A stretch of DNA of 64,000 bases from Candidatus Doudnabacteria bacterium (GCA_037200925.1 JBBCGO010000001.1:824235-888234); one strand, 5' to 3'. Shown: positions 1,824 to 50,800, counted from the stretch's first letter. The notes: generated by a model from the sequence alone, not told the origin. Numbers and translations: made by a program.

Positions 1824-3965
1824 TTATCTGACCTGATTGACAGTGAACTGGGCCTGGCCCGATGTCACGACCATGGAGCCGATCGCCTTATTGACGATCG
1901 ATTTGAGGTTTGCATTAATTTCGCAGATGCTCTCCTGGACTTCCCCCGGTCTGATAATCGCGTTTATCCCGTCGGTGTAGATGATGAGAGCGGTTACGTC
2001 TGTTGGCCCTGGTACGTAGCTTGCATGCGCGTTCGCATCATTGATCATCTGCTGCGCCGCAGTACTGATGCCGAACTGAGGACTCGGATCCCCAACTAGC
2101 GCCCAGATAGCTGTCTGCACATCCTTCACAAAATCGAGGTCGGATTTACCGGCTCCGCGGATCTTGTGGTTGAGCGTGTAGTTGACCTTGTTCCAGGCCA
2201 GAACAGCGACATCGGCAGGCAAACTACCGGCAGTAGTCGAGTACAGATGCGCTGACTGGTTGTGCAGGTCAGTGGGCACGCCATCCTGTATGCACCAGCA
2301 CTTATAGGTGCTGTCGGGCACATTGGCACCGGCACCCGTGATAGCAGTGTCTTGCGAGCTATTGGCGAATCCCAGCCAGGCCCCGGTGTTTATGTTCGCC
2401 GTGACCCCCTGTATCCAGTTCGTCACGCTACCCAGATCAGAGGCCTGCGTAACGTAGTTCTTCGTGCAGGTGAAGGTCGCGCCAGGAAGTATGATCGTCG
2501 CTATTGATCCGCAGGTAAATGTACCGAGTTTGTCATCGTTAATCGTGAATGGGCCGGTAAGCGGCATGTTGCCGTTGTCGGTCAACGCATAGGTATAGAC
2601 AATCGTCTGGCCGGCGGCAGAGTAAGTAATCGGGTTCGCCGACTTGTTCAGTGACAGGCTGAATGCAGGGGGGACTTGTACGACTAGGGAATTAGCGACC
2701 GTGCAGGTGGCCTGACTGCCAGCCACGACAGAAACCGAAGAGCAGGTGCTGGAGTTCTGTGTCCAGCCGGCCTGCGGGGTTTCCGTGATGGAATACGTTC
2801 CGGGCATGACCGCGGAGAACGTTTTTGTACCGCTGTTGGCAGTCGTGGTGATGACAAAGCTCGTGTTGCCCGGTATATTGCTGGTGAAGTTGAATGTGCC
2901 GTCAACGCCGCTGGTTGTCTTTGTGACTACCAGCGTCCCGGTTGTGGGAGGAGGAGTGCCTGGGCACGATGATGGGTTAAATGTGTCTGCGGCAGTCGTC
3001 ACGGTTCCGCCAAATGCCAAGGCCCGGCCATTCCATGTTACTTGGTTGCCTACGGTAATAGCCGTACCAATGACAGTTCCTGCAAACGTCGAGTTGGCGC
3101 CAAGGGTAGTGGCCCCAGTTGGGGTCCAAAACACATCGCAGACTGTTGCGCCGGGTGAAAATGTGACGGAAGAGGCGGCTGTAGTATTAAGCGCGCCAAC
3201 CATCCGAAAGAGGTATTGTCCGCTACCCCTAATGGTAATTCCCGGTGCTCCTACTGAAGCCGCGCCTGTAATACAATAGACTCCGGGTTCTAGCGGTTGC
3301 GGTAGTGCACTTAGGACAGTGGCAGCACCAAAATTGAAATCACAGGGTTGATCATTCAAGATCGCCAAAGCAGCGGCCTGATCTGCGCCTGCTTGGAGAT
3401 AAACTGGGTCAGGGGCCACGTAGGTTGTGCCATTCACTACGGGTGACATGGCGGGCGGGACAGTGTATCCTAGGTTTCCATTGATAATAGTTCCTGGTGC
3501 CGCGTTGGCCAAGGTACCGGTCAGAACCCTGAATGTGGCCGCAGCCCCAAGAGACGGAGGAAGCGTGGGGGGTATATCGTCATTGGTGACAGTGCAGGTT
3601 TTGGTCTCGAATGGGGACAAGGTGCCTGTGCAGTCAGCGGAAAAAGTGGCGGTATAGCTGGAAGGACCCGTTTCAATCACGCTGTAAAAAGAGTCATCCT
3701 GGATAGTGACTAAAACTCCCGGTGATTCTACGCCAGGGAAAGTAGTGGGCGTCCCAATAACTCCATTAACCGTCATTGTGAAATCAGAGGCAACCGCAGT
3801 GCCGCCGTTATCATTTATGACGTGTTTAATGACATTCAGAAAAGCTGGGGGTTGAAATGCAGCTTCCGCAGGGATAAGCCTTGCAAGACCGAATAAAATG
3901 GGCAGAACTAAGACGGCTAGTGCAACTGCCATTGCACTCTTTTTAAGAATTATGGTTTTACTCAT
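1824..3965 (-). CDS. Secreted surface protein with an ice-binding-like (DUF3494) beta-helix domain and Ig/prealbumin-like repeat domains
   Basis: N-terminal signal or TM segment. The central region (TFRVLTGTLANAAPGTIINGNLG...QAGADQAAALAILN...GVYCITGAASVGAPGITI...VFWTPTGATTLGANSTFAGTVIG...GRALAFGGTVTT) matches the DUF3494/IBP signature. A following TGTLVVTKTTSGVDGTFNF...ITETPQAGW segment resembles SpaA/DUF11-type domains. Confidence 0.6.
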   Translation of the reverse strand: MSKTIILKKSAMAVALAVLVLPILFGLARLIPAEAAFQPPAFLNVIKHVINDNGGTAVASDFTMTVNGVIGTPTTFPGVESPGVLVTIQDDSFYSVIETGPSSYTATFSADCTGTLSPFETKTCTVTNDDIPPTLPPSLGAAATFRVLTGTLANAAPGTIINGNLGYTVPPAMSPVVNGTTYVAPDPVYLQAGADQAAALAILNDQPCDFNFGAATVLSALPQPLEPGVYCITGAASVGAPGITIRGSGQYLFRMVGALNTTAASSVTFSPGATVCDVFWTPTGATTLGANSTFAGTVIGTAITVGNQVTWNGRALAFGGTVTTAADTFNPSSCPGTPPPTTGTLVVTKTTSGVDGTFNFTSNIPGNTSFVITTTANSGTKTFSAVMPGTYSITETPQAGWTQNSSTCSSVSVVAGSQATCTVANSLVVQVPPAFSLSLNKSANPITYSAAGQTIVYTYALTDNGNMPLTGPFTINDDKLGTFTCGSIATIILPGATFTCTKNYVTQASDLGSVTNWIQGVTANINTGAWLGFANSSQDTAITGAGANVPDSTYKCWCIQDGVPTDLHNQSAHLYSTTAGSLPADVAVLAWNKVNYTLNHKIRGAGKSDLDFVKDVQTAIWALVGDPSPQFGISTAAQQMINDANAHASYVPGPTDVTALIIYTDGINAIIRPGEVQESICEINANLKSIVNKAIGSMVVTSGQAQFTVNQVR

Positions 3966-8638: not shown

Positions 8639-9376
8639 ATGTCTAGAAGTTATACTAAACACTCTAAAATAAGGGCTAAAACACGGAAAGCAAAATCCAG
8701 TTTGCCGTTTTTTCCATTTGCTGTTTCAACGCTCTTAGTTCTAACGCTCATTGTTTCAGCTGTCAGCTATGGTTTCTCCAAAGCATTAGCCATACCGGCT
8801 CCGGTCGTATTTGTCGCGGAGAAGGCCGCAAATCCTGTCCAAGCGAGCGTTCTGGCGGTTCCGGCACCGGCAATTCAGGTTGCTGTAGCCCAGAATTTAC
8901 CTCAAAAAAAGGTTGTTGTTATTCCAAAAACCGCAGAACTACCGGAAGCGCATTTGAAAATTCCATCGATCAATGTTGACGCTGTCATTAAAGATATGGG
9001 CGTGACCACTACCACCGGAGCCATGGCGCTTCCGGGCAATCGATTTGATGTCGGTTGGTATGACTTAGGCACGGTTCCGGGTCAGACGGGGAGCGCTGTT
9101 ATCGGCGGTCACAACTATTGGGATTCCGGAACAGGGGCGTTTGTTAATTTGAATAAGCTGAAAAAAGGCGATGTTCTGTCCGTCGTAGACGCGAGAGGTG
9201 TTTCAACTTCCTTCGTGGTTAGTGACATTCGCACATTTGATGCAAATGATACCAATAGCGGAATATTTCAATCCGTCAGCGGTGTTCATCTTAATCTGAT
9301 CACTTGCAGCGGCACTTGGGATCCGTCAACAAAAAGCTATACCACGCGTTTAGTTGTCTATACAGATGCTGTGTAA
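8639..9376 (+). CDS. Sortase-family transpeptidase
   Basis: N-terminal TM anchor, an His-containing GGHNYW block and the catalytic LITCSG (TLxTC) motif. Confidence 0.6.
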   Translation: MSRSYTKHSKIRAKTRKAKSSLPFFPFAVSTLLVLTLIVSAVSYGFSKALAIPAPVVFVAEKAANPVQASVLAVPAPAIQVAVAQNLPQKKVVVIPKTAELPEAHLKIPSINVDAVIKDMGVTTTTGAMALPGNRFDVGWYDLGTVPGQTGSAVIGGHNYWDSGTGAFVNLNKLKKGDVLSVVDARGVSTSFVVSDIRTFDANDTNSGIFQSVSGVHLNLITCSGTWDPSTKSYTTRLVVYTDAV

Positions 9377-9528: not shown

Positions 9529-12069
9529 ATGAAAAAAATATCTTTTTTTACGGCTTTAATCGGCATTTTTGCGGGTTTAGTGGTTTTTGCAGGGTCTGCC
9601 CATGCCATGACGCCAACTTTGTCCTTAACCGGCACCGGCGACGGCGATTCTGTCCAGATCAATGTCACCGGCGATCCCAGCGTTAATGTTTTGCTGTTTT
9701 ACACCAAAACCAATGTCGGGTCGCAGATAGCCACATTGGGGATGACCAATGCCAGCGGCAATTTTTCAAATACTATCAGCTCTTCCGGCTACGGCATTGC
9801 CGCCGGCACCTCGGTTTACGTTGAGACCACCGGTTTGAACGGTCCGCAATCGGCTGCCGTGGCCTGGCCGATCGCATCGACCAGCGGCACGTTTTCCTTG
9901 AGTCCGACCGGAGTTGTGCTTTCCGCCGGCCAAAATTCCACCATTACCGCGTCCAACAACGGCGGCAACACGCTTTATTTATCCAACAATTCCAACCCGC
10001 CTGTGGCCAACGCCAACATCAGCGGCAATCAAATTAATATTACGGCCTTAAGCAACGGCTCCACGGTCCTGACCGTCTGCACCAGCGGCAATACGTCAAC
10101 TTGCGCCAGCGCCTATGTTACCGTGCAGAACAGCGGCGGGCAAGCGCTGACATTCAGCCTAAGCAATGTGACCGTGGCTCCGGGCCAGAGCGTGCCCATC
10201 ACCATCAGCGGCGGCAACGGCAGTTATTCAACGTTAAACAATTCTAATTCCGCGGTCATCCAAACCAATATCAGCGGGTCCACAGTAACTCTCAGTACCA
10301 ACGGCACCAGCGGCTCCGCGGCCATAACCATTTGTTCGTCGGATATGGCGGCATGCGGCATTATCAATGCCACGGCCGGCAGCGCCAGCACCACGGCGCT
10401 GTCGCTCAGTCCGTACAATCCCACCCTGGCACCCGGCCAAAGCTTGAATGTGACCATTTCGGGCGGGGCTTCGTCAACATATTATGTTTCTTCCAACTCC
10501 AATCAGACCTCGTTAAGCACAAGCGTAAACGGGAGTAATCTGACGCTGACCGGCAATAGCTACGGTACGGCAAATCTGGTGGTATGTTCATCAAGCGGCA
10601 GCTGCGGCAACCTGACCGTGACAGTCAGCTATGTTTCCTACGGCGGCACCATAACTTTAAGCCAAAGCAGCATAGTGCTGCTGGTCGGGCAGGTCTTGAG
10701 CGTGACGGTCACAGGCGGCACTACGCCTTATTCCTTGTCTCCGGCTCAGAGCAATTTATTCCAGGCCAGCCTCAATGGCAATGTGGTCACCCTGTCCGGA
10801 ATTGCGGCCGGATCTTCCACGGTCTACGTCTGTTCTGCCGGCAGTGCCTGTGCCACGTTATCCGTCACAGTCAACGCCTCAGGCGCCGGTACGCCCATAA
10901 CCTTCAGCCAAAATAATATCAATTTGAGCATGGGAGGAATTACCGCGCTGACCATAACCGGCAGCGGCGGCTACTATGCCTCCACCAACTCCAATCCCAG
11001 CGTCGCTACTGTGCAGATCAGCGGCAGCACTGCTCTGGTCACGGCCGGCAGCGCCGGTTCAAACAATATTTCCATTTGCCAAAGCGGCGGACAATGCGCG
11101 ATCTTATTCGTGACCGTCAGTTCCGGCACCTCCACCGTTTCCATCCCGGCATTCAGCAACACTAATCCCGTGATCACGGCAGGACAGGTCTTGAACGAAA
11201 CTATTTCCGGAGGCGCTTCAAGCAATTATTATATTCTGGCCAACACCAACCCCGCTGTCGTGCAGTTGAGTCTGAACGGCAATCAGCTGGCCCTGTCAGG
11301 CTTAACCGGCGGTTCATCCACAGTTGCGATCTGTGCGACATCCAACAGTTGCGCCGTACTGACCGTTACGGTGAACGGGACTGCCGCATCGAACATTTAT
11401 TTTGCCACCACCAGCCTGCCTCTTGGCATAGTAGGGCAGGCTTACAACAACCAGATCATGGCCGCGGGCGGCAACGGCAGCTACACGTTCACCTTAACTT
11501 CGGGAAGCCTGCCTTCGGGGCTGACTTTATCCGCCACCGGTTTGCTTTCCGGTACCCCTATCGGAACTGCCAATAATAATATTTCCATTATGGCCGCGGA
11601 CAGCACCGGCAATTCCGCCACAGCGAATTTTACCCTGACCGTAAATAATGCCGCTCCCGTTGCTCCCGCTCCCGCCAGCACGGGCCCATACCAGAACGGC
11701 CAATTGATCCTTGAAAACGGCACAGTTTATATCGTTTATCAAAACACCAAAGTCGGGTTTGCCAGTGCGGATGCGTTCGTGGGTCTGGGTTATCAATTCA
11801 GCAATGTCACTCCCGTAACTGATTCGGGGTTGGCGGTTTCCAGCAAGGTCGTGGTCACGGCCGACGGGGGACATCCCAGGGGTTCGTGGCTTCTGAGCGG
11901 CCAGGCGGTATTTTTTCTGACACCCGACGGGTTGATCCCGGTCCCTGACTGGAATACCTTCCTAAGCAACGGCGGCCAGGCCATTTTCATAGTCAGTGCC
12001 AACAGTTTTGATCTGGCCCGGCCCAGACTGGCAAACATGAGCATGAACGATTCCAGGCTGAGCCCCTAA
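9529..12069 (+). CDS. Large secreted surface protein with about 7 tandem Big_2-like Ig domains and a C-terminal putative-Ig (He_PIG-like) domain
   Basis: Signal peptide MKKISFFTALIGIFAGLVVFAGSAHA. Repeated ~85-aa units each end ...VC.S.G.C..L.VTV. The C-terminal IYFATTSLPLGIVGQAYNNQIMAAGGNGSYTFTLTSGSLPSGLTLSATGLLSGTP is He_PIG-like. Confidence 0.6.
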   Translation: MKKISFFTALIGIFAGLVVFAGSAHAMTPTLSLTGTGDGDSVQINVTGDPSVNVLLFYTKTNVGSQIATLGMTNASGNFSNTISSSGYGIAAGTSVYVETTGLNGPQSAAVAWPIASTSGTFSLSPTGVVLSAGQNSTITASNNGGNTLYLSNNSNPPVANANISGNQINITALSNGSTVLTVCTSGNTSTCASAYVTVQNSGGQALTFSLSNVTVAPGQSVPITISGGNGSYSTLNNSNSAVIQTNISGSTVTLSTNGTSGSAAITICSSDMAACGIINATAGSASTTALSLSPYNPTLAPGQSLNVTISGGASSTYYVSSNSNQTSLSTSVNGSNLTLTGNSYGTANLVVCSSSGSCGNLTVTVSYVSYGGTITLSQSSIVLLVGQVLSVTVTGGTTPYSLSPAQSNLFQASLNGNVVTLSGIAAGSSTVYVCSAGSACATLSVTVNASGAGTPITFSQNNINLSMGGITALTITGSGGYYASTNSNPSVATVQISGSTALVTAGSAGSNNISICQSGGQCAILFVTVSSGTSTVSIPAFSNTNPVITAGQVLNETISGGASSNYYILANTNPAVVQLSLNGNQLALSGLTGGSSTVAICATSNSCAVLTVTVNGTAASNIYFATTSLPLGIVGQAYNNQIMAAGGNGSYTFTLTSGSLPSGLTLSATGLLSGTPIGTANNNISIMAADSTGNSATANFTLTVNNAAPVAPAPASTGPYQNGQLILENGTVYIVYQNTKVGFASADAFVGLGYQFSNVTPVTDSGLAVSSKVVVTADGGHPRGSWLLSGQAVFFLTPDGLIPVPDWNTFLSNGGQAIFIVSANSFDLARPRLANMSMNDSRLSP
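9886..11390 (+). repeat. Diverged in-frame tandem repeats (~255-270 nt units) encoding the Ig-like domains
   Basis: Recurrent protein-level periodicity (SLSP...G...L.V...GG....Y......N.......S......L...G.......VC.....C..L.VTV). Confidence 0.5.
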
Positions 12070-12124: not shown

Positions 12125-15100
12125 TCATTCGGATCTGAGCATCGGATATTTTTCTTTTATCCATTTGGTAAAGGATGCCGCGTCTATCGCCGGGCTGAAC
12201 AATTTTCCCTGGCCGCCTTCGCATTTTTGCGATGCAAGAAATTCCAATTGTTCTTTCGTTTCAACTCCTTCGGCAATGACTTTTAATTTCAAATTGTGCG
12301 CCATAGAAATGATGGCTCTGACGATTTCCGCATCCTGTTCGCTGGTGAGGCAGTCTTTTATGAACGATCTGTCGATCTTCAGGTTATTCAAAGGAAAACG
12401 GTTGAGATAGCTTAACGATGAATAGCCTATGCCGAAGTCATCTATGGAAATCTCAAATCCTAATTTTTTCAGGCGCTCCAGCTGCTCAGTTGTGATTTTG
12501 AGATTATGCATGGCAATACTTTCGGTTATTTCCAATTCTATGAAAGCCGGCTTAAGCTTGAGTTCGTGCAGCGTTGAAGCGATTTTTTTGACCAGATTTG
12601 CCTGGGTAAATTGATGAGCGGAAAGGTTGACAGCCAGTTTCAGGTCCGGCAGATCTAATTTGTGCCATTTTTTTAATTGCATGCCGGCCGTTTTCAGGAC
12701 CCAGTCATCGATAGCAATAATTGCGCCGGTGTCCTCAGCCGCAGCAATGAATTCGCGAGGCAGGATCAAACCCAGCTTGGGATGCTGCCATCGGATCAGC
12801 GCTTCGACTGACATTAATGTGCCGTCTTTGACGTTTATCACCGGCTGATAAAATATTTTCAATTCTTTGCGGGACAGCGCCGTGCGCAAAGCAGTTTCGA
12901 TGGCCAATTTTTTGGAGGTCCGCTCGCTCATGCCCTGGTTATAGAGCAGGTGTTTGCTTCTGGCGGATTCTTTCGATCTGTACAAAGCCGTATCCGCGTT
13001 TTTCAGAAGCGTGTGAATATCTTTTCCGTCTTCAGGATAGAGCGCAATGCCCATGCTGGCCCCGACGTGGAGCGTATGGTTATTAATTTTAAATGCCGGC
13101 TTTAATGCCGCAGTGATCTTTTCCGCAACCTTTACCGTCTGGGTGTCATCCCTGATGTTGATAAGCAGAATGATAAATTCATCACCGCCCCACCTTGACA
13201 GCGTATCTTCCCGCCGGATGCACGATCCCAATCGTTCACCGACTTTTTTCAGCAGTTCATCTCCCACGCTGTGTCCCAGCGTGTCGTTGATCGTTTTAAA
13301 TTGGTCTAAATCCAAAAATATGATGCCTACCCGCTCTTTGTGCCGTTTGGCGCGATTAAGCGTCATGCCCAGGCGATCTTCCAGCAATTTTCTGTTGGGC
13401 AGGTTGGTGAGCGTATCATGAAAAGCTTGATGGTGAATTGTCCGTTCGGACTGCTTGCGTTCCCTCACGTCCCGGGCTACGACCGCAATTGCCGAGGATC
13501 TCTTTGTTTTGGGATCGCTTATGGCAAATATATGCATTTCCGTCACAATGGGCGTGCTTGTGGGCAAATGTTTGAGCTGCAGTTCGCCCGTCCAATTTTC
13601 ACCGAGAACTATCGCAGGCAGAATATCCTTTTCCAGTTTTTCCCTGTCAGCTTTCATAAAATAATCAAAAATAGTCATACGTTTTCCATTCCCGTTGCTG
13701 CCGCGCGGGTTTCCTACAAGGCGCCTCCCTCCGCCGTTGAGAAAGAGTATCTTGCCTTCCGGCAGCACCAAACTGATAAAATCGCTGCTGTTTTGAATAA
13801 GCGAGGATAATTCGCGCTGGCGCTGCGAAATGTCCTCGATCGCCAATAAGATCAGGCCAGGCGACCTTTCTCCGTCCTTTGGAATAGCCCGGGCATTCAG
13901 GAGCATGGTCCTGGATTCGTGATTAGGAAAATCATGTTCAATTTCTAAGTCGTGGAATTTTTTACCCTCCGGCAAAATTTCTTCCAAGAGCTTGCGCAAG
14001 CGGGGGATATTCCATTGTCCCTTTTCTATTGTGTACAAGGGCTGCCCCACGACATCTTTTTTCAAAAGTTTAAAAGTAGCATAAAAAGCGGAATTCGCTT
14101 CTTTGATGCGGAGGTCTCCGTCCAGAACCAAAAGAGGTTCGCGGACCGTGTCAAAAACCGCTTCAATATATTCCAGGCTGGTTTTCAGCTTGTCGATGTC
14201 GATCAGCGTAATGACCGTGCCGTTGATCTTGTTGTCGTGGGAGCGGGAAGGATGGATTTGCAGAGAATGCCAGGTGCCTTGCAGATCCTGAACGTCTTTT
14301 TTATATGGCGTGCCGGTAATTATCACTTCCCGCAGCAGCTCTTCCATGTTGGGGACTTTGAGGTTGGATTTGATGTCAGTGATGGGGCGGCCGATATCCG
14401 AGGGTAATATCCTCAAAATTCTTACTGCAGTGGGGGTAAAGCGCCTCACGGTCAGGTCATGTTCCAGCATCACCACCGGTATATCCACGGTGCTCAGAAG
14501 ATTGACCAGATCTTCGGACAACTGCCCTAATTCTGAATTTCTGTGCTGGACTTCTTCATTGACCGTGGTTAATTCCTCATTGGTGGACTGCAGTTCTTCC
14601 TTGGCTGTTTCCAGTTCTTCGTTGGTGCTTTGCAGCTCTTCGTTGCTGGACATGATCTCTTCGTTGGCTGCCATCAATTCTTCGTTGGCCGCCTCATGGT
14701 TTTCGATCAGTTCCTGCAGATATTTTCTGGTTGAGCTGACTTCTTGTTCCAGCTGCTTGTAAGTCTGATTTTTGGAACGTGGCCCTTGGCGCCGATCATT
14801 ATTTTTTTTGACCTTTGCGGCCTGAGCTGAGCTTTCTTCAAAAAGGATCAGGAAGTATGCTCCATTTTTTCCTATCGGAAGAACTTCAATATTGATGTTC
14901 CGATGGCTGCCGTTGATGGTCAGGCCGACATTTTCTTTCCGGAACGGCTTTTTGGTTTTTTTCGCTTCATCAACCGCCTGTGACAATTCTGAAAACAGGC
15001 CGACGGCCACCATTTTCAGTAAACTAAAACTTGCCTTCCCGGGCGCCATCTCCAGGTAAGGGCGGGTTTGGCCCCGGAATTGAATAACCTCCAGTTTGTT

Positions 15101-16750
15101 GTTGATCAAGATGCCGGCCGGAGCAAAATTGTTCACGATCAGGCGGTCAGCTTCTGCCTGAGCGTCCTTGACGCCCAGAATTTTGTTATCTGCAGCGGCT
15201 GTCTGCACCTGCTGCGTTACCGTATCGGCGGTTATCAGGTCGCGTTCATGACGCTGGTCAGAAAGCGGCTGATTGAAAGAAGTGATTGCAGCCGGGTTTG
15301 CCAGGGGATTTTTGGAATAGATCTTATGCTTTTTATCGATTGGAACGAACAGATCGGAAAAACTTCCGGTTGTCTCGGCGGTTCCGAGCTTTAAGAATCC
15401 TCCCGGTTTGAGCGCAAAATGAAACACCGGAAAGATTTTATGGTGCAGTGCCGGCCCCATGTAAATGAGAAGATTTTGGCAGCTGATAAAATCCAGAAAC
15501 GAAAAGGGAGGATCTTTTATCAAATTTTGCTTGGCAAAAACGCACATCTCTCTTATCTGTTTGCTTATCTGGAAACCGTTTTCTACTCTGTGGAAAAAAC
15601 GCTCCAGCCGCTCGGGCGAGACGTCCAGAGCAATATTTTCGATGTAGATCCCTTCGCGGGCGCGGGCCAATGACTTATCGCTGACGTCAGTGGCAAATAT
15701 TTGTACGGGAATGGCGATCTCGCGCTTTTTTAAATATTCAGACAAACTGATGGCAATGGAATAAGCTTCCTCGCCGGTGGAACATCCCGGCACCCAAATT
15801 CTTACGGGTTTGTCCGGAGGTTTGTTTTTTACGAGCGCCGGCCAGACCTTATGTTCCAGTATCTTAAACCCTTCGGGTTCGCGGAAGAAGCGGGTTACGG
15901 TGATCAGAATTTCGTCATACAGTTCACTGATCTCTTGAGGATGGCTCTTTATGAACTCCACATAATCTTTGTAGCTTTCCATCTTATTGAGTGTCATCCG
16001 TCGTTCTATGCGCCGTTTAATTGTGGCGTATTTGTAATTGGCAAAATCAACGCTGGTGTGGATCCGCAGCAAATTCAGAATTTTATGCATCGACTCATTG
16101 CCGGATGCTACGAATTCTTGAGCTGTTTCATATTCGGGCTTGGCCAAGTGCCCATTTTTCGCAAGCTGGCCTAATTCTTTACCGATGTTTTTGGCGGAAA
16201 GGATATGGTCCACGTTGCCGCTGGCAATGGCAGACTGCGGCATGCCGTTATATTTTGCGGATTCCAGATCCTGGGCAATGGTTATGCCGCCCACGGATTT
16301 AATTTCCGAAATACCAAGCGTGCCGTCACTGCCGGTGCCCGACAGAATGACGCCGATCGGCGGCGTACTACTACTACTATCGTCGGCAAGCGATCTGAAA
16401 AAAATATCTATTGGCATATGCTGGCCGTCAAACATTTTCCGCGGTGTCAGATACAGGATCCTGTCTTTTATGGTTATATTTTTATTCGGCGGAATAACAT
16501 ACACGGTATTTGGTGAAACCGGCATATTATTCTTGGCTTCCAGGATCGGAATAGAGGTTTTTTTACTGAGAATTTCCTGCAAATAACTTTCGTGATGGGG
16601 ATCTAAATGCTGAACCAGGACGTAAGCCATATTGGAACGAGGAGGCAAGTATGAAAGCAATTCAAGAAAAGTCTCCAAGCCCCCGGCTGATGCCCCTATA
16701 CCCACAATAGGAAAATTCCCCCTCGGTGCAAGAGGATATTTCTTTTGCAT
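12125..16750 (-). CDS. Giant multidomain signalling protein: CheB methylesterase - CheR methyltransferase - PAS - coiled coil - PAS - GGDEF - EAL
   Basis: CheB_methylest motif VGIGASAGGLETFLELL. The NEEL-repeat coiled coil EELMAANEEIMSSNEELQSTNEELETAKEELQSTNEEL is typical of CheB/CheR fusion proteins. RWGGDEFIILL (GGDEF), EALIRW, ELEITES and DDFGIGYSSLSYL (EAL) follow. Confidence 0.85.
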   Translation of the reverse strand: MQKKYPLAPRGNFPIVGIGASAGGLETFLELLSYLPPRSNMAYVLVQHLDPHHESYLQEILSKKTSIPILEAKNNMPVSPNTVYVIPPNKNITIKDRILYLTPRKMFDGQHMPIDIFFRSLADDSSSSTPPIGVILSGTGSDGTLGISEIKSVGGITIAQDLESAKYNGMPQSAIASGNVDHILSAKNIGKELGQLAKNGHLAKPEYETAQEFVASGNESMHKILNLLRIHTSVDFANYKYATIKRRIERRMTLNKMESYKDYVEFIKSHPQEISELYDEILITVTRFFREPEGFKILEHKVWPALVKNKPPDKPVRIWVPGCSTGEEAYSIAISLSEYLKKREIAIPVQIFATDVSDKSLARAREGIYIENIALDVSPERLERFFHRVENGFQISKQIREMCVFAKQNLIKDPPFSFLDFISCQNLLIYMGPALHHKIFPVFHFALKPGGFLKLGTAETTGSFSDLFVPIDKKHKIYSKNPLANPAAITSFNQPLSDQRHERDLITADTVTQQVQTAAADNKILGVKDAQAEADRLIVNNFAPAGILINNKLEVIQFRGQTRPYLEMAPGKASFSLLKMVAVGLFSELSQAVDEAKKTKKPFRKENVGLTINGSHRNINIEVLPIGKNGAYFLILFEESSAQAAKVKKNNDRRQGPRSKNQTYKQLEQEVSSTRKYLQELIENHEAANEELMAANEEIMSSNEELQSTNEELETAKEELQSTNEELTTVNEEVQHRNSELGQLSEDLVNLLSTVDIPVVMLEHDLTVRRFTPTAVRILRILPSDIGRPITDIKSNLKVPNMEELLREVIITGTPYKKDVQDLQGTWHSLQIHPSRSHDNKINGTVITLIDIDKLKTSLEYIEAVFDTVREPLLVLDGDLRIKEANSAFYATFKLLKKDVVGQPLYTIEKGQWNIPRLRKLLEEILPEGKKFHDLEIEHDFPNHESRTMLLNARAIPKDGERSPGLILLAIEDISQRQRELSSLIQNSSDFISLVLPEGKILFLNGGGRRLVGNPRGSNGNGKRMTIFDYFMKADREKLEKDILPAIVLGENWTGELQLKHLPTSTPIVTEMHIFAISDPKTKRSSAIAVVARDVRERKQSERTIHHQAFHDTLTNLPNRKLLEDRLGMTLNRAKRHKERVGIIFLDLDQFKTINDTLGHSVGDELLKKVGERLGSCIRREDTLSRWGGDEFIILLINIRDDTQTVKVAEKITAALKPAFKINNHTLHVGASMGIALYPEDGKDIHTLLKNADTALYRSKESARSKHLLYNQGMSERTSKKLAIETALRTALSRKELKIFYQPVINVKDGTLMSVEALIRWQHPKLGLILPREFIAAAEDTGAIIAIDDWVLKTAGMQLKKWHKLDLPDLKLAVNLSAHQFTQANLVKKIASTLHELKLKPAFIELEITESIAMHNLKITTEQLERLKKLGFEISIDDFGIGYSSLSYLNRFPLNNLKIDRSFIKDCLTSEQDAEIVRAIISMAHNLKLKVIAEGVETKEQLEFLASQKCEGGQGKLFSPAIDAASFTKWIKEKYPMLRSE

Positions 16751-16950
16751 TAGGGCCTTTTTTAGCGCGCTGGATGGCCGCTGTTTTTTATTCCGATCAG
16801 GTTTGATCTTCGTAAAATACCTTTCCTTTTCACTATCACAACAACGTATTGTATTACAGCAAATGGGGCATTGTCAATTGGAATAATTCCAAATTTTTTG
16901 TTGTTTTAGTCTGCGTTTTTTTGAAAAATTGTCCATATTTATTTTGGGCT

Positions 16951-16989
16951 AAACAAAAATTCCCGCCAAACGACAGGGAATCTTTGTTT
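16951..16989 (-). terminator. Rho-independent terminator for the yeaQ-like gene
   Basis: The minus strand reads ATTCCCtgtcgtttggcGGGAAT followed by TTTTTGTTT. Confidence 0.5.
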
Positions 16990-19821: not shown

Positions 19822-22353
19822 ATGAACTTCGTTAAAAAAATATTTTTTGTTCTTGCGATCATTTCTTTTTTTGTAATGCCCAAGGCCATTTCACTGGCTC
19901 AGACGGCATCACCTCTGCTGCCGGCCGGCACGCTTGTCCAAGCAACGGGGGACATTACCGTCTACTATATAGAGAATAACGGGAAGCGGCCGATAGACTC
20001 GTTCGAGACTTTCCGGATGCAGGGATTTCATGCGCCGATCATTGCTGTTTCTCCCGCTGACTTAGCGCTTTATCCTACAGGAGATATCATCACCAAAGAT
20101 TCAACAATCGAAGTTCCCGGTCAATCACAGGTAGTGCCGGACCTGGTGCCATTTGCTCCGAGTGACCTTCAGCTGACACGCCGCAACGGCCGACTGCTGG
20201 TCCTTTTTACGACTTCGTTCTGGAACAGGGGGATGGGCCCTTTGGAACTTGACGCGACCTCATCCAAACCCGTGGCGGACAATACTTACGAAACCGCCCA
20301 GCATATTGTTTTGCCGGATGGATCGGTCCGCAACAAAGTAGTGGGTGATTTTTTCTGGGACGCGCCCCATAAGCATTTTCATTATAATGATTTTGCCTCT
20401 TACATCTTAGCGCCCATGGTCACGTCGCAGGGGCAGGCTCCGACCTTTGTGACGCCGCCCACGAGTACGGTTGTGCCGCCGCCGGCGATCTGGACGCCCG
20501 GGCTGACGCCGTCATTGCCCAAGGGAGCTGTGCTTGGGACGTCCACTGTAGCTCCGCAAGTTCTGAATAAATCCACTTTCTGCCTTTATGAAAATCAGCA
20601 TATCCTGCTGCCGACAGAAGGGGTCAGCAAACCCACGAAATCATACACGATCTGCGGAAGGTTCAAGCAGGGGGTTTCCGTAGGATGGGCGGATGTCTAT
20701 CCGTATTTGCTGGTTGACCAGAATTTTGATGTTACCGATCTGCCGGCAGGAACTTATTCCATATCTTTCGTGGTTGACCCTCACCAGCATTTAATGGAAG
20801 GGTCTCGCGACAACAATATCGGCATGACCATCTTTGATCTGGATCCGGCAAACGGAACCATGAGCATTCTGGCTAGCGGCGCGCCTTTTGCTACGCCGCT
20901 TAATCATTATACGAACGGGATGCTGGTGCGAAGCGAGAGCGACCCGGCCATATTTGTAATGCAGAACAATAAAAAGCAACTGTTGTCAGGTCCGTCAACA
21001 GGTCAGGTCTTTATTTTGCCGCAGGGGGTTTTTGATGCCATCCCTTCCCTGAATCTGATCCAGGCAACGGGTTCGCCGACCATCTATATTCTGAACAATC
21101 AAGGTTTCCGGCGAGGGATCACAAGCATGAATGTTTTCAATTCCTACGGATTGAACCTTTCGGATGTAACTCAGATCAGCCAGGCCGATCTTGTCAATTA
21201 TCCCGAGTCCGACCTTATTGAAAAGCAGGGTGATAACACGGTGTACTCCATAAGCACACATCAATCCGTGGGCACAATCACATCCTTGCCCCAAGGCCTT
21301 GATCCGGCATCGGTTCATATCGTCAACCAAACGGATTTTGAATCGTACATGGTGGCTACGGCCGCCAGCGGCCTGTTCGTTCCGTGGGACATCGCTTTCA
21401 TGCCTAATGGAGATATGCTCGTGCCCGAGCGCTCAGGGGATGTACGCGAGATCGGCAAAAATCCGGGTATCATCACAGTTCCCGGCGTTTTCAGTACAGG
21501 TGAAGGGGGACTCATGGGTCTTACTCTGAGCCCGAAGTTTGCGTCGGACAATTTGATCTATCTTTATTTTACGTCCAACGATAATGGCCAGAAGAACCGG
21601 GTGGCCAGTTTTCAGCTGAACGGAAATCAGCTCAGCAACGAGAAAATTATCATAGATAATATCCCTTCCAGGATCTATCATGACGGCGGCAGGCTTGCCT
21701 TTGGCCCTGACGGCATGCTCTATATCACTACCGGTGATGCCACTTCTCCGAATTTAGCCCAGGATCTCAACTCCCTGGCCGGCAAGACGCTGCGCCTTAT
21801 GCCGGACGGACAGATCCCCGCGGATAATCCTTTCGGAACCGCGGTCTGGTCTTACGGCCACCGCAACAGCGAGGGGATAGCCTGGGACAATCTGGGTCGG
21901 ATGTGGGAAACGGAACACGGGCCGACGCAGGGAGAGCCGGCGGAAAGAGGCCTGTGCTGCCGCGACGAAATAAATCTTATAGAGAAAGGCAAAAATTACG
22001 GCTGGCCGACGATCCAGGGAGATGAAACTAAAGCCGGCATGGTCGCGCCTATGCTCACTTCAGGAGCAAGCACGACATGGGCGCCGGCAGGAATCGCCTT
22101 TGCGGACAAAAGTTTGTACTTTGCCGGGTTAAAAGGCTCCAGCCTGTATCAGATAAGATTTAATGCCGACGGAAGTTACAAAGACCTGACCGCGCATTTT
22201 ACCGGACAATTCGGGCGCCTGCGCGCAGTGGTCCTGGGGCCTGACGGTTCATTGTACCTGAGCACATCAAACAGGGACGGCCGCGGAACTCCTCAATCAG
22301 GAGACGACAAGATCATACGGGTGTATCCGGGATTTCTTCAGAGCACACAGTAA
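19822..22353 (+). CDS. Secreted fusion protein: lysyl-oxidase-like copper amine oxidase domain (N-terminal) plus PQQ-dependent sugar (glucose/sorbosone) dehydrogenase beta-propeller (C-terminal)
   Basis: The signal peptide is followed by VVPDLVPFAPSDLQL, FFWDAPHKHFHYNDFASY (compare LOX WEWHSCHQHYHSMEVFSHY), NKSTFCLYEN and GWADVYPYLLVDQNFDVTDLPAGTYSISFVVDP (compare LOX ...[25 protein letters not shown]). The C-terminal half carries GSDH motifs PWDIAF, GEGGLMGL, GPDGMLYITTGD, YGHRNSEGIAWD and KNYGWP. Confidence 0.7.
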   Translation: MNFVKKIFFVLAIISFFVMPKAISLAQTASPLLPAGTLVQATGDITVYYIENNGKRPIDSFETFRMQGFHAPIIAVSPADLALYPTGDIITKDSTIEVPGQSQVVPDLVPFAPSDLQLTRRNGRLLVLFTTSFWNRGMGPLELDATSSKPVADNTYETAQHIVLPDGSVRNKVVGDFFWDAPHKHFHYNDFASYILAPMVTSQGQAPTFVTPPTSTVVPPPAIWTPGLTPSLPKGAVLGTSTVAPQVLNKSTFCLYENQHILLPTEGVSKPTKSYTICGRFKQGVSVGWADVYPYLLVDQNFDVTDLPAGTYSISFVVDPHQHLMEGSRDNNIGMTIFDLDPANGTMSILASGAPFATPLNHYTNGMLVRSESDPAIFVMQNNKKQLLSGPSTGQVFILPQGVFDAIPSLNLIQATGSPTIYILNNQGFRRGITSMNVFNSYGLNLSDVTQISQADLVNYPESDLIEKQGDNTVYSISTHQSVGTITSLPQGLDPASVHIVNQTDFESYMVATAASGLFVPWDIAFMPNGDMLVPERSGDVREIGKNPGIITVPGVFSTGEGGLMGLTLSPKFASDNLIYLYFTSNDNGQKNRVASFQLNGNQLSNEKIIIDNIPSRIYHDGGRLAFGPDGMLYITTGDATSPNLAQDLNSLAGKTLRLMPDGQIPADNPFGTAVWSYGHRNSEGIAWDNLGRMWETEHGPTQGEPAERGLCCRDEINLIEKGKNYGWPTIQGDETKAGMVAPMLTSGASTTWAPAGIAFADKSLYFAGLKGSSLYQIRFNADGSYKDLTAHFTGQFGRLRAVVLGPDGSLYLSTSNRDGRGTPQSGDDKIIRVYPGFLQSTQ

Positions 22354-26050: not shown

Positions 26051-26458
26051 TCAGCAATCAGCCGATGCCAGTACGCCGTTCTGCAGATTGATCTGCTCTG
26101 TCGTGGTCATCTGCAGAGCTTCGCGCGACGGGCCGAGCACCGTGCTGCAGCAGTTGTACAACCCCATGGCAACGCCGAGCTTTTCTTCGCACACGCTGCG
26201 CGAGACATCACAGCCCACGAGACGGATCAACTGGCGGCCGAGAGGGGAGTCTGGCGGCGTTGTGGTCAGTTTGCGCTTGCTCGTCGCCAAGACTTCCGAG
26301 GCTTCCCGCTCCAGAAATGCAACACCCAGCGGCAGGTCGTGGCGGAAGGCGCTCCACAGCGCGGAGCGCAGAACGTCTTCGTGCGCGGTTTCCGGGTCGG
26401 TAAAGCCTTGTTCCAAAAGAACCGAACGGATTGAGGGATACGACACAGCTTCCTCCAT
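26051..26458 (-). CDS. Hypothetical protein in a GC-rich (~60%) island. Start taken at MEEAVSY
   Basis: ORF with a protein-like frame and a local GC well above the ~45% background. No motif recognised. Confidence 0.35.
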   Translation of the reverse strand: MEEAVSYPSIRSVLLEQGFTDPETAHEDVLRSALWSAFRHDLPLGVAFLEREASEVLATSKRKLTTTPPDSPLGRQLIRLVGCDVSRSVCEEKLGVAMGLYNCCSTVLGPSREALQMTTTEQINLQNGVLASADC

Positions 26459-26483
26459 TTCTAAATGCGACCAATTCGCATTT
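26459..26483. promoter_or_regulatory. Perfect 10-bp-arm palindrome (candidate operator) in the divergent intergenic region next to the Fur-family gene
   Basis: CTAAATGCGA-ccaat-TCGCATTTAG abuts the start codon of the minus-strand ORF and lies ~90 nt upstream of the Fur-family gene. Confidence 0.4.
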
Positions 26484-26572
26484 AGATAGAGTATACGAAG
26501 GCCTTTGATTACTGTCAAGTAAATGCAAATCATTCGCAATTGTAAAAGGCTATAATTTAAGTTATAATCTGA

Positions 26573-43884: not shown

Positions 43885-44268
43885 GGGGCTGCTCAGATTC
43901 GACAGAAGTTCTTTGATAAATATTGCAAGTCCGATTAGCCTAATTTCTCGGTTAAAAAAACAAGGCAAATCATAAATGCCAATTCTTTGGTAAGCAAGGT
44001 TAAGAATGCTTTTGCATTCTCTCCTGCTTTGGCTCTCGCTTAATACGTGAAAGCCCATCCGCCCCGCAAAGTCTGTGCGCGGGATACGGGTGTTATATTA
44101 TCCGGACTCACTTTAGCTGGCGCCTGACGGCTTTAGGACACTAAGGGCTTAACTTAAACCGCTTTCGTCCGTTTTTATGGTTTGAGCCAACAATTCAAGC
44201 GGTCCAAACTTGTAGATATATTTGTTAAAATCTTTTGGACGGGAGTGCAATTCTCCCCAGCTCCACCA
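43885..44268 (+). ncRNA. ssrA: tmRNA (SsrA)
   Basis: 5' GGGGCUGCUCAGAUUCGACAGAAG, 3' ...GGACGGGAGUGCAAUUCUCCCCAGCUCCACCA. Acceptor stem with the G3-U70 wobble, T-arm and CCA. Internal reading frame ...GCU UUU GCA UUC UCU CCU GCU UUG GCU CUC GCU UAA (tag ...AFAFSPALALA). Convergent with smpB. Confidence 0.85.
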
Positions 44269-44282
44269 AATAATTTTATTTT

Positions 44283-44310
44283 AAAAACAGCAGGTATCTG
44301 CTGTTTTTGT
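44283..44310. terminator. Bidirectional terminator shared by ssrA and smpB
   Basis: AAAAACAGCAGgtatCTGCTGTTTTTG. Confidence 0.6.
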
Positions 44311-44759
44311 TATACTCGAGTTCTTACAGTCCGGTCCAGGTTTCGTTTCAGTTCTTTTTTCTTGATGGATTCGCGTTTATCGAATTGTTTTTTGCCTTTT
44401 GCTAAGCCAATTTTGAGTTTGATCAATCCTTTTTTTGTGTAGAGTTCCAGAGGTATTAAAGTCAGGCCTTTTTCTTTGCTCTTAGTCTGCAATCGTTCAA
44501 TTTCTTTTTTATGCAGCAGCAGTTTGCGCTCCCTTGATTCATCATGGCCTTCCAGGTTGGAGGCTTGTTTGTATTTGCCGATGTAAGCATTGCGTAAGAA
44601 ACCTTCCCCGGCCCGAATGGTGACGTAAGCACCGGCTAGGGAAGCCTGGCCGGTCTTGGCGCTTTTCACTTCATGACCGGCCAATACTAAGCCGGCCTCT
44701 ACTGTCTCTTCTATAGAGTAATCATGGAATGCTTTTCTATTTTGGGCCAAAGTCGACAT
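44310..44759 (-). CDS. smpB: SsrA-binding protein SmpB
   Basis: NRKAFHDYSIEETVEAGLVLAGHEVKS...GHDESRERKLLLHKKEI. Confidence 0.9.
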   Translation of the reverse strand: MSTLAQNRKAFHDYSIEETVEAGLVLAGHEVKSAKTGQASLAGAYVTIRAGEGFLRNAYIGKYKQASNLEGHDESRERKLLLHKKEIERLQTKSKEKGLTLIPLELYTKKGLIKLKIGLAKGKKQFDKRESIKKKELKRNLDRTVRTRV

Positions 44760-47802: not shown

Positions 47803-50800
47803 ATGAAGCAAACTTTTAAACCAATCGATCCGAAGCCTGACTTTCCCAAACTTGAGGAAGAGGTCTTAAAGTTTTGGGAAGACAATCAGATCTTCCAAAA
47901 ATCTTTGGAGCAGACGAAAAACGGCAAGCCGTACGTTTTTTATGACGGCCCGCCGTTTGCTACAGGTACACCGCATTACGGACATATTTTAGGTTCAACT
48001 GTAAAGGACCTGTTTCCGCGCTATCAGACTATGAACGGAAGATTTGTCCGCCGCCGCTGGGGCTGGGACTGCCATGGCCTGCCGATAGAAGAGATAGTTG
48101 AGCGGAAATTGGGGATCTCAGGCAAAAAGGACATTGAGAAGCTGGGCATAAAAAAATTCAACGAAACCTGCCGCTCAATGGTTTTGGAATATGTGGGCGA
48201 GTGGCGGAAGACCATCCGCCGAATTGCGCGCTGGGTTGATTTTGATAATTCTTACAAAACCATGGATCGCGACTACATGGAGTCCGTCTGGTGGGCATTC
48301 AAACAGATCTATGACAAAGGGTTGGTTTACGAAGGCCGCCGGGTGCTTCTTTATTGTCCTCGTTGCGAAACGCCGGTTTCAAATTTTGAAGTGGCTATGG
48401 ATAACAGTTATCAGGAAGTCACAGAAGAAGCGGTAACCGTAAAATTCAAAATCCAAAAGCAGAAGAACACTTATTTATTGGCCTGGACGACCACCCCCTG
48501 GACTTTGCCGGGCAATGTGGCCTTGGCTGTGGGTGCGGATATTGATTACGTAAAAGTTAAAGCAGGCGATGAGTTCTATATTTTGGCAAAAAAAACTGAA
48601 TAAAGACGGGACAATTATTGAAGAATTCAAAGGCTCCAAACTTGTCGGCTTGGAATACGAACCGTTATTTGATGTGCCTGATGTGAGATCAGACAAGTCA
48701 TTTAAAATTTATGCGGCTGACTTTGTGAATACCGAAGACGGCACCGGGGTCGTGCACACGGCCGTGGTTTACGGTGAAGATGACTATGATCTGGGGCTGA
48801 AAGTCGGTTTGCCCGTGGTTCCTTTGCTTGATGAAAAAGGAAAGTTTAATGATAAGGCGCCGAAGTTATTGCAAGGCGTATATTTTAAAGATTCGGAAAA
48901 AATCATTAAGAAAGACCTTGAGGGCAGGGGATTGTTGTTTGCAAAAAATCAGCACAAACATTCTTATCCGCATTGCTGGCGCTGTGGTACGACGCTTTAT
49001 TACAATGCCATCCCGGCCTGGTTCATGAATATCCAAAAGATCAAGAAAGGCCTTTTGGAAACAAATGACAAAGAGATCAACTGGTTCCCCGAGCATCTGA
49101 AACACGGCCGGTACGAAAAAAGCGTGGAAGCAGCCCCTGACTGGAATATTTCCCGCAACCGATACTGGGGCAACCCGATCCCGGTCTGGAAGTGCGAAGA
49201 CGGGCACAATACCGTGGTTGGCAGTATCAAGGATCTGGGTTTGGAAAGAAATACTTTTTATTTTTCAAGACACGGCCAAGCTGACCTGAACCTTACGATG
49301 GTGGCCAGTAATTATCCGGAAATTGTTATCAGCAGCCTGACTGATGAAGGAAAAAAACAAGCCGAAGCATTAGCGAATGACCTCCGGAAGAGCGGTGGTG
49401 TTGATCTGATATTTTCATCTGATTTGAAACGGACAAAGGAGACCGCAGAAATTGTCGGAAAATTACTCGGAGTTAAAGTGGTCGAGGATGAACGACTGAG
49501 GGAATACAATGTCGGCACATATAACGGCAAACCGGACGCTGACTATGACCGCGATTTTCCTGTTGAAGTGCGGTGGGATAAAGCCGCTCCCCAAGGGGAA
49601 ACCTGGAAGCAATTGCAAGAGCGGATGGTTGATTTTACTGAAGAAATCAATAAAAAATATCAAGATAAAAAAATACTCGTTGTTTCGCACGGCGACGCGC
49701 TATGGATGCTACAGAAATATTTTGGGTCAGAGCGAGAATACCCGAAGTTTGGCCAAGTTTTTGAAGTGTCCGTCAGCGTAACGGATCTGCACCGGCCGTA
49801 TATTGATGACATCGTTTTGAAGTGCAAACAATGCGGCAAGGACTCTCATAGAACGCCGGAAATCTTTGATTCCTGGGTGGAGGCCGGTTCCATGCCATTT
49901 GCGGAATATCATTATCCAATTGATCAGAAAGAAACATTTGAGTCACGCTTTCCGGCCCAGTTCATCTCCGAGTATATTGCCCAGACCAGAGCCTGGTTTT
50001 ACGTCATGCATGTCATCTCTTACAATTTATTCGGTAAAGCGCCGTTTGAAAACGTGGCGACCACAGGCACTATTCTGGCTGAAGACGGCGACAAGATGAG
50101 CAAGTCAAAAAATAACTATCCCGACCCTTGGATCGTGATCGATAAATATGGCGTGGATGCCCTGAGATTTTATCTAATGAATTCTTCTGTCATGAACGCT
50201 GACAATTTGAACTTCAGTGAGAAGGAATTGGGGGTTGTTTACCGCAAAAATATTCTGATCCTTTGGAATATTTATAATTATTTTGTGACTTATGCCAATG
50301 AAGCTGATTGGGAGCCGAAGGGACCCGGTTACAAACCGGATTTGACAAATGTTCTGGATCTTTGGATCGTAGCCAAGACACAAGATCTGGTAAACGAAGT
50401 TACGGAGCAGCTGGATAATTACAACACTGTGCGCGCAACGAGAGCGATAGAAAATTATATCAATGAACTTTCGACTTGGTATGTGAGAAGGAGCAGAGGA
50501 CGAAAAGACAGCCATTTCTTCGGTAGCCTCCGCCATGCGCTGATGGTTCTGGCAAAAGTTTCAGCTCCCGTAACGCCTTATCTGTCTGAACTGATCTACA
50601 GCAATTTGAATAAAAATCCGGATGTGATCTCGGTGCATCTGGCCAAGTGGCCGGAAAAGAAAGAGTTGACCGCTGAACAAAAAGAAATCTTGAGCCAGAT
50701 GCAGTTTGTCAGAGAAACGGTGGAACAAGGGCACGCGCTGCGGAAAAGATCAAACATAAAACTGCGCCAGCCTCTGGCCTCGGTTACCTATACGCTTAAA

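Follow-up and report, generated by a model that had tools for sequence, protein, structure and literature searches.

Chemoreceptor arrays are known for the reversible methylation of glutamate residues by CheR and CheB, which counts as one of their hallmarks. In Escherichia coli, both enzymes function tethered to the receptors by a flexible tail (pentapeptide). In methyl-accepting chemotaxis proteins (MCPs), the charge neutralisation driven by methylation stabilises the helix packing. The subject of this study is an open reading frame (ORF) at positions 12,125 to 16,750 of a 64,000-nucleotide stretch of DNA from a Candidatus Doudnabacteria bacterium (GCA_037200925.1 JBBCGO010000001.1:824235-888234); the whole stretch is called the window. 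Its product joins CheB and CheR to PAS folds, a long acidic helix with NEEL repeats and a GGDEF-EAL part predicted to turn over cyclic di-GMP (c-di-GMP). The ORF product is a rare GGDEF-EAL output variant of a very large, widespread sensor family and not a unique invention.

The nearest characterised functional analogue is the Wsp system of Pseudomonas, composed of the MCP WspA, the CheR protein WspC, the CheB protein WspF, the CheA protein WspE and the receiver-GGDEF protein WspR. The likeness is a proposal: CheR/CheB-type enzymes would set the gain of a pathway with c-di-GMP output. Wsp requires a membrane MCP, CheW, CheA and phosphotransfer to a separate cyclase, whereas the ORF product is one soluble polypeptide that also has an EAL domain. 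Because no Wsp-type partner was found in the protein or in the window, the ORF product does not belong to a chemosensory pathway.

By its sequence, the ORF product is a member of the CheB/CheR fusion proteins (K13924), with all features present that define the family at this level. The collinear core from the receiver-less CheB to PAS_4 is common to both. The usual output of the fusion proteins is none or a histidine kinase, in contrast to GGDEF-EAL in the ORF product. The family is known only from automatic annotation. No experimental work on it was found in PMC (7.7 million papers) and bioRxiv, where KEGG 'cheBR' mentions were the only hits. MorA (4RNH) and 5M3C of Pseudomonas resemble the ORF product in its C-terminal 450 residues; the CheB/CheR module and the NEEL helix are absent from both. 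The predicted fold of amino acids (aa) 527-860 resembles PpsR 4L9G, DosP 9CMF and WalK 9A5D at a sequence identity of 8-12%. The linkers of these three proteins are not acidic heptad arrays, and the modifying enzymes are absent.

Architecture and integrity of the ORF product

The full architecture comprises CheB, CheR, a disordered linker, a PAS-like domain X, a basic linker, a long helix, PAS_10, PAS_4, PAS, GGDEF and EAL. Structure models carry the predicted local distance difference test score (pLDDT).

12125..16750, minus strand: whole ORF, 1541 aa plus stop, ATG start, uninterrupted reading frame (ORF listing)
16172..16705, minus strand: CheB methylesterase catalytic domain, aa 16-193 (Pfam CheB_methylest 3.5e-53; PDB 6YMZ/1CHD/1A2O 1e-18 to 1e-21)
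15938..16087, minus strand: CheR_N all-alpha domain, aa 222-271 (Pfam 1.4e-14)
15329..15898, minus strand: CheR S-adenosylmethionine (SAM)-dependent methyltransferase domain, aa 285-474 (Pfam 4.1e-47; PDB 5FTW 1.4e-29)
15173..15310, minus strand: linker, aa 481-526 (conservation 0.07-0.24; pLDDT <50, predicted disordered)
14831..15172, minus strand: domain X, aa ~527-640, PAS-like fold with N-cap helix and five strands (AlphaFold2; no Pfam match)
14771..14830, minus strand: basic linker, aa 641-660 (7 K/R, 1 D/E; poorly conserved, predicted disordered)
14489..14773, minus strand: single long helix of ~95 residues, aa ~660-754 (AlphaFold2 model residues 161-255, pLDDT 91-98), entering PAS_10 uninterrupted
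14543..14689, minus strand: NEEL heptad array, aa 688-736, seven x-N/K-E-E-L/I/V-x-x heptads (15 acidic, 1 basic, net -14)
14192..14506, minus strand: PAS_10, aa 749-853 (Pfam 5.5e-28; AlphaFold2)
13814..14155, minus strand: PAS_4, aa 866-979 (Pfam 8.4e-19); the conserved family core stops at ~aa 980
13436..13810, minus strand: weak third C-terminal PAS, aa ~987-1100 (PAS_4 4e-5 when aa 981-1105 were scanned alone)
12956..13426, minus strand: GGDEF diguanylate cyclase domain, aa 1109-1265 (Pfam 3e-52; aligned to 5M3C and MorA 4RNH)
12191..12892, minus strand: EAL phosphodiesterase domain, aa 1287-1520 (Pfam 1.6e-73; aligned to 5M3C and MorA 4RNH)

The 1541-aa product is identical to NCBI MEJ0021861.1, annotated as 'MAG: EAL domain-containing protein [Candidatus Doudnabacteria bacterium]' on a 964,444-bp contig. 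Accessions of neighbouring window proteins from the same contig flank this entry, and the database gives both NCBI and a Logan assembly as sources of the identical product. The guanine-plus-cytosine content (GC) of the ORF is 0.474, and 0.549 at third codon positions (GC3); window genes have 0.463 ± 0.041 and 0.517 ± 0.071. Both values are level across all eight domain segments, and no compositional break was found. Collinear full-length relatives share 35-37% identity and cover 98-99% of the length. No relative above 51% identity was found, and the 90% identity cluster has a single member. The ORF product is almost certainly a genuine, intact member of the CheB/CheR-fusion family.

An earlier note on this DNA had described a single ORF of 1541 aa with CheB-CheR-PAS-GGDEF-EAL and a heptad coiled coil rich in NEEL. 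The ORF listing and the Pfam domain annotation agree with the former, and the array at aa 688-736 with its 21-bp DNA period (14591-14645) bears out the latter. The note had named two PAS sensors. Instead, there are four PAS folds, the extra ones being domain X, by structure prediction, and the weak third C-terminal PAS. Of an assembly chimera, which the note had considered, there is no sign in the NCBI and Logan records, in the even GC and GC3 or in the full-length relatives of the same architecture.

The Kyte-Doolittle 19-residue mean peaks at 1.33. Since a hydrophobic transmembrane segment is lacking, the ORF product is placed in the cytoplasm as a soluble, probably dimeric protein. NCBIfam yielded sub-threshold matches only, to named c-di-GMP phosphodiesterases, CheB and CheR; the protein thus has no orthologue among the named enzymes.

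The CheB part starts at the N-terminus and has no receiver domain (Pfam). Its catalytic triad S21/H48/D142 is present and invariant in 199/200 relatives. The CheR part has the motifs GCSTGEEAYS, ATD and CQNLLIY, and its SAM motifs align with solved CheR structures. Eight CheR positions were checked in the 200 relatives: R290, C323, D355, N426 and Y430 are fully invariant, and the remaining three vary only conservatively. This near-invariance of the triad and of the CheR positions indicates that both enzymes are under selection and maintained. Relatives with a dead CheB or CheR, in which decay of the array might be seen, were not found among the 200 sequences. Methyltransferase and methylesterase activities of the fused enzymes are predicted from these motifs.

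At the other end, the last 450 residues match 5M3C and MorA 4RNH end to end (~1e-116 to 1e-117). The C-terminus is, in this alignment, a member of the MorA-like GGDEF-EAL class. The GGDEF domain has an RWGGDEF active site, the metal- and GTP-binding residues and an RRED (RxxD) I-site five residues upstream. The EAL domain contains the motifs EALIR, NLS, ELEITES, DDFGIGYSS, KID, EGVE and QG. The motif DDFGIGYSS has an isoleucine in place of the usual threonine or alanine of DDFG(T/A)GYSS. All motifs align with 5M3C and 4RNH; the GGDEF A-site and I-site and the EAL residues, which the earlier note had singled out for checking, are intact. Cyclase and phosphodiesterase activities of the GGDEF-EAL part are predicted on the basis of the intact motifs.

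The region between CheR and the helix (aa 475-660) has no Pfam match, yet it is conserved in relatives. AlphaFold2 modelled aa 500-860 from a 37-sequence alignment with a mean pLDDT of 80.7. In Foldseek, the model of aa 527-860 aligned over 330-360 columns with WalK 9A5D, DosP 9CMF, PpsR N-Q-PAS1 4L9G and FixL 8JS5 (E 5e-9 to 1e-6). These alignments to PAS-helix-PAS proteins identify domain X as a PAS fold; a comparison of domain X with PAS_10 by hhalign gave a weak match (E 0.007). The third C-terminal PAS is specific to the GGDEF-EAL output part. The AlphaFold model of the whole core (aa 1-980) has a predicted template modelling score (pTM) of 0.30, shows the domains as beads on a string and renders the CheR C-terminus poorly. 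It places the long helix at 664-754 and low-confidence linkers at 200-217, 410-524 and 642-666. The linkers flanking domain X are unconserved and predicted to be disordered, which fits tethered enzymes.

Family spread and outputs

A search of 5.8 billion proteins was evaluated for the 120 best matches. All 120 share the CheB-CheR-X-helix-PAS_10-PAS_4 core at ~43-51% identity. At JGI, the family is labelled 'two-component system, chemotaxis family, CheB/CheR fusion protein', with KEGG K13924. The core (aa 1-980) has 41-51% identity to relatives, including 47-51% to 26 core-only members (E = 0). When the helix and PAS_10 (aa 655-860) served as query in a profile-free search, 17,027 of 1.84 billion cluster representatives matched at E<=1e-3, 12,755 at 1e-10 and 4,829 at 1e-30.

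The GTDB species representatives contain at least 582 confirmed loci, of which the best 80 were surveyed. They belong to Cyanobacteria, Acidobacteriota, Verrucomicrobiota, Planctomycetota, Bacteroidota, Gemmatimonadota, Myxococcota, several Proteobacteria, Bdellovibrionota, Nitrospirota, Actinomycetes, Armatimonadota, Omnitrophota and Fibrobacteria, and in the archaea to Methanoperedens and Bathyarchaeota. The best 80 loci included no candidate-phyla-radiation genome, and the ORF product is the only candidate-phyla-radiation member encountered among the matches listed. The archaeal loci in Candidatus Methanoperedens and two Bathyarchaeota metagenome-assembled genomes (L049, L069 and L080) have an intact NEEL array. 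One of them has only the core, with a gene for a hybrid kinase downstream, and the other two carry short extensions that were classed as histidine kinase.

The outputs of the surveyed loci were as follows:

Core only: 36/79 loci
Fused histidine kinase (HisKA, HisKA_3 or HWE type): 41/79 loci
GAF-SpoIIE: 1/79 loci
Unclassified: 1/79 loci
GGDEF-EAL: 0/79 loci

In the protein search, a GGDEF-EAL output was present in 8/120 best matches, including the query. The seven other clusters came from a Pyrinomonadaceae acidobacterium, a gammaproteobacterium and metagenome sources and form about four groups by sequence identity. The nearest GGDEF-EAL relative of the query is the Pyrinomonadaceae protein; their cores are 48% identical and their output parts 46%.

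Only one neighbour family recurred. Its 61 ORFs are spread over 41 loci, of which 21 are core-only. In 31 loci it directly follows the CheB/CheR gene on the same strand, and in several core-only loci it overlaps the stop codon. Nine members were sampled, and all contain PAS domains: eight of them are histidine kinases, including four hybrids with a receiver, and the ninth has PAS domains only. The usual family output is a histidine kinase, either fused or encoded by the next gene. The core is output-agnostic and is combined with HisKA, HisKA_3 and HWE kinases, SpoIIE, GGDEF-EAL or a separate downstream PAS-kinase gene. With at least seven other GGDEF-EAL versions and the kinase as usual output, the architecture is not a one-off.

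Chemotaxis partners were sought around the ORF and its relatives. In the window, Pfam was applied to 60 other ORFs, and CheY, CheW and Tsr of E. coli as well as a CheA-like sequence served as tblastn queries. Neither search revealed an MCP, CheA, CheW, CheY, receiver, histidine kinase, PilZ or further GGDEF/EAL gene in the 64 kb, and the statement of the earlier note that the window has no MCP or CheA/CheY holds. MCP, CheA and CheW were also not detected by tblastn within ~6 kb of 80 related loci (908 kb), with queries that had no positive control. The CheY query found receiver domains in 23 of the 80 loci. Candidate-phyla-radiation bacteria are not generally known to have chemotaxis, and the host organism probably lacks chemotaxis machinery.

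The NEEL helix and its proposed methylation

The most informative result concerns the conservation of the NEEL helix. Identity to the query was calculated in 20-residue windows of a MAFFT alignment of the 120 best matches. The segment 701-720 (SSNEELQSTNEELETAKEEL) ranked top of all segments with a mean identity of 94%, ahead of the CheR SAM motif (78%) and the CheB His motif (72%). Invariant in 93-100% are S701, N703, E704, E705, L706, Q707, S708, N710, E711, E712, E714, T715, A716, K717, E718, E719, L720, N724, E725, E726, L727, T729 and N731. These near-invariant columns (701-731) cover every face of the helix, including positions predicted to be exposed to the solvent.

A hit list may favour shared words. 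The calculation was repeated on 44 genome loci that were ascertained solely by a CheB pattern. Here, the segment 703-722 was top with 0.868, followed by the CheB ascertainment site itself with 0.845 and the CheR motifs with 0.80-0.83. Each protein has 4-8 xEE[LIVMF] heptads, and the array is kept across the range from cyanobacteria to Bathyarchaeota. It is present in 120/120 best protein matches and in 79/79 family proteins, compared with 1/253 neighbouring ORFs. In L029, L038 and L042, two labelled Bryobacteraceae and one Bryobacterales, exactly one heptad is deleted with the register intact (ANEEA-------QAGNEELETAQEEL), which suggests that the repeat number can vary by whole heptads.

Short matches without CheB/CheR are mostly gene fragments, frameshifts and 5'-cut contigs. 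Three were looked up: L082 is a 5'-cut gene, L084 is frameshifted and L083 is a contig with too little upstream sequence. On the L084 metagenome contig, an amidase and Sod_Fe_C are also split by frameshifts, and the CheB/CheR protein is spread over three ORFs. The frameshifts are probably sequencing errors, and the splits indicate that many 'short' family matches are artefacts.

The methylation helices of Tsr and Tar share several traits with the NEEL helix: Glu-Glu pairs every seven residues, an acidic helix and small residues after the pairs. They form an antiparallel hairpin in a four-helix bundle, whereas the NEEL helix is a single helix that feeds a PAS domain and has another heptad phase. 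In both, charge neutralisation is a plausible signal. The array has leucine at position a, Thr/Ala/Thr at d and the glutamate pairs at f and g; its core is weak. The relaxed motif [ASTG]xxEExx[ASTG][ASTG] occurs in five consecutive heptads (aa 687-723), with 0.3 expected in shuffles. The repetition of the Glu-Glu motif at an exact spacing of seven residues, like that of multi-site MCP methylation helices, supports a methyl-accepting helix. An origin of the helix as an MCP relic was rejected at the sequence level, where helix-only PDB and Pfam searches returned generic coiled coils only.

The proposed mechanism starts with the receiver-less CheB and CheR, which would reach the long acidic helix by means of disordered linkers. 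The linker of aa 481-526 may serve as the flexible tether that joins the enzymes to the remaining protein, and covalent tethering would take the place of the pentapeptide tether of E. coli CheR and CheB on receptors. The helix would act as the N-terminal coiled coil of the PAS_10-PAS_4-PAS stack. CheR would methylate and CheB demethylate its Glu-Glu pairs, in cis or between the two chains of the dimer; up to ~14 negative charges would be neutralised and helix packing altered. Through PAS_10, PAS_4 and PAS, the packing change would shift the balance of c-di-GMP synthesis by GGDEF and breakdown by EAL, with sensory input provided by the PAS-fold domains. The net result would be chemoreceptor-style adaptation or memory in one protein, independent of MCPs and governing c-di-GMP. 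Taken as a whole, this mechanism of an MCP-independent sensor that methylates its own helix to tune c-di-GMP turnover is about as apt to hold as to fail. A precedent is reported from Salmonella (PMC8546571), where CheR methylates a non-MCP protein, PhoP, at consecutive acidic residues.

Several findings weigh against the helix as substrate of the fused enzymes. The full 10-residue consensus [ASTG][ASTG]xx[EQ][EQ]xx[ASTG][ASTG] has 0 matches in the helix, and searches with Pfam MCPsignal, PDB and tblastn detected no sequence homology to MCP signalling domains. The phase of Tsr, with leucine at d and Glu-Glu at e and f, differs from that of the array with leucine at a and Glu-Glu at f and g. Glu-to-Gln substitutions are common at MCP methylation sites; such replacements are nearly absent at the Glu-Glu pairs, which are almost invariant across relatives. 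In the AlphaFold models (pTM 0.30-0.39), the helix is not confidently docked on either CheR or CheB. The 36/79 loci without a fused output leave room for enzymes that act on another protein. A complete gene, L081:2584-5250 (P0180), encodes the NEEL helix, PAS_10, PAS_4, HisKA, HATPase and a receiver without CheB/CheR and domain X. This gene immediately follows an unrelated FG-GAP gene and is the sole clear case of the helix without fused enzymes, demonstrating that the NEEL helix can exist without them. The methylation-gated c-di-GMP switch of the earlier note is plausible and stands in part: the conserved helix, the maintained CheB and CheR, the interchangeable outputs and the lack of detected chemotaxis genes nearby speak for it, and the unmatched MCP consensus speaks against it.

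These observations can be explained in other ways. A PAS-regulated CheR/CheB pair may act in trans on MCPs elsewhere, a partner kinase or another regulator; the helix would then be a dimerisation or signalling helix or a pseudosubstrate, and GGDEF-EAL a parallel output. Methylation of MCPs is the canonical role of CheR and CheB, the PhoP case points in the same direction, and the full MCP consensus is unmatched by the helix. The P0180 kinase fits trans-acting enzymes encoded elsewhere. Core-only loci are often followed by a gene for a separate PAS-kinase, and intermolecular action must therefore occur in some members. For the ORF product, action in trans is fairly unlikely: MCP, CheA and CheW were not found in the window or near the 80 family loci, candidate-phyla-radiation bacteria are not generally known to have chemotaxis, and the conservation of the helix above that of the enzyme active sites, exposed faces included, would be left unexplained. 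The substrate may also lie elsewhere in the same protein or dimer, for example in acidic pairs of the PAS or GGDEF-EAL domains, or the helix may be conserved for some other purpose, such as cation or partner binding or service as a metastable coiled-coil lever like the PpsR Q-linker. Its location between PAS folds, as in the levers of PpsR N-Q-PAS1, DosP and WalK, agrees with such a role, and so do the heptad phase unlike that of MCP sites and the essential absence of Glu-to-Gln replacement. Ordinary signalling helices, however, are not near-invariant at the predicted b, c and f positions across phyla. An identical motif every seven residues suggests one reader site that visits each repeat, and the helix always accompanies CheB/CheR while the outputs vary across the family. 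This second explanation is unlikely.

An assembly chimera or a decaying, pseudogene-like fusion without function is very improbable. Such a large multidomain signalling gene is unusual for a reduced genome of roughly 1 Mb, and the lack of close relatives and the single-member cluster would suit an artefact. Against this stand the identical product from NCBI and Logan, the absence of frame breaks, the even base composition, the intact catalytic motifs and the collinear relatives. Self-methylation extended to the whole family is a wider claim. It would make the NEEL helix a built-in methyl-accepting register and the family a widespread receptor-methylation adaptation system of bacteria and archaea that is free of MCPs, CheA and motility, with at least 12,755 clusters at 50% identity. 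This is possible, with the balance tipped slightly against it.

Gene neighbourhood and biological meaning

The upstream region of the ORF contains two candidate expression signals:

16848..16877, minus strand: promoter-like site TTGACA-18-TACAAT, 11/12 consensus matches, ~100 nt upstream of the ATG
16962-16977: terminator-like hairpin that ends the upstream small Transgly_assoc ORF; the promoter-like site comes after it

The number of such promoter-like sites in the region, counted as consensus matches only, is not above that in shuffles. The 3' end of the ORF is convergent with the next gene. These consensus matches suggest a monocistronic ORF.

The window neighbours encode a sortase, large secreted proteins, peptidases, Dsb proteins, aminoacyl-tRNA synthetases, tmRNA/SmpB and similar functions. 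Three large genes with secreted or surface-type domains, 1824-3965 (minus strand), 9529-12069 (plus strand) and 19822-22353 (plus strand), have a GC of 0.52-0.55 compared with the window mean of 0.46. Their domains are ice-binding-like and SpaA folds, He_PIG Ig and pilus-N, and GSDH and lysyl-oxidase. Two of them flank the CheB-CheR ORF, and the sortase gene is at 8639-9376. A class-I aminoacyl-tRNA synthetase (tRNA-synt_1, Ile/Val/Leu type) is split into 47803-48603 and 48569-51145 (both plus strand) with a 35-nt ORF overlap. In the second ORF, a His_Phos_1 histidine-phosphatase domain (aa 231-403, 6.7e-37) is inserted between synthetase segments. The tmRNA gene at 43885-44268 (plus strand, tag ANSLVSKVKNAFAFSPALALA) adjoins smpB on the opposite strand (44310-44759, minus strand), with IF-3 and L20 genes just upstream. 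An ORF of more than 944 aa at 61167-64000 (plus strand) runs past the window end and has a weak TrbL/VirB6 match (6.4e-4); it may code for a conjugation or type-IV-secretion-like membrane protein. The only Pfam match of 26051-26539 (minus strand) is 'NucS shadow ORF' (2.5e-5), and the real gene at this place may be NucS-like on the opposite strand.

The family hypothesis is sharply testable, since it predicts methyl esters on four to seven Glu-Glu pairs. If the helix is self-methylated, adaptation through methylation would be a general and portable input module that serves kinases, phosphatases and c-di-GMP enzymes alike. Such a module would occur in thousands of lineages, archaea and non-motile organisms among them. 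No literature on c-di-GMP in Patescibacteria was found in PMC and bioRxiv, and the ORF product raises the question of what c-di-GMP controls in a candidate-phyla-radiation genome of roughly 1 Mb. With self-methylation, the protein would provide a reduced candidate-phyla-radiation cell with adaptive, memory-bearing control of c-di-GMP.

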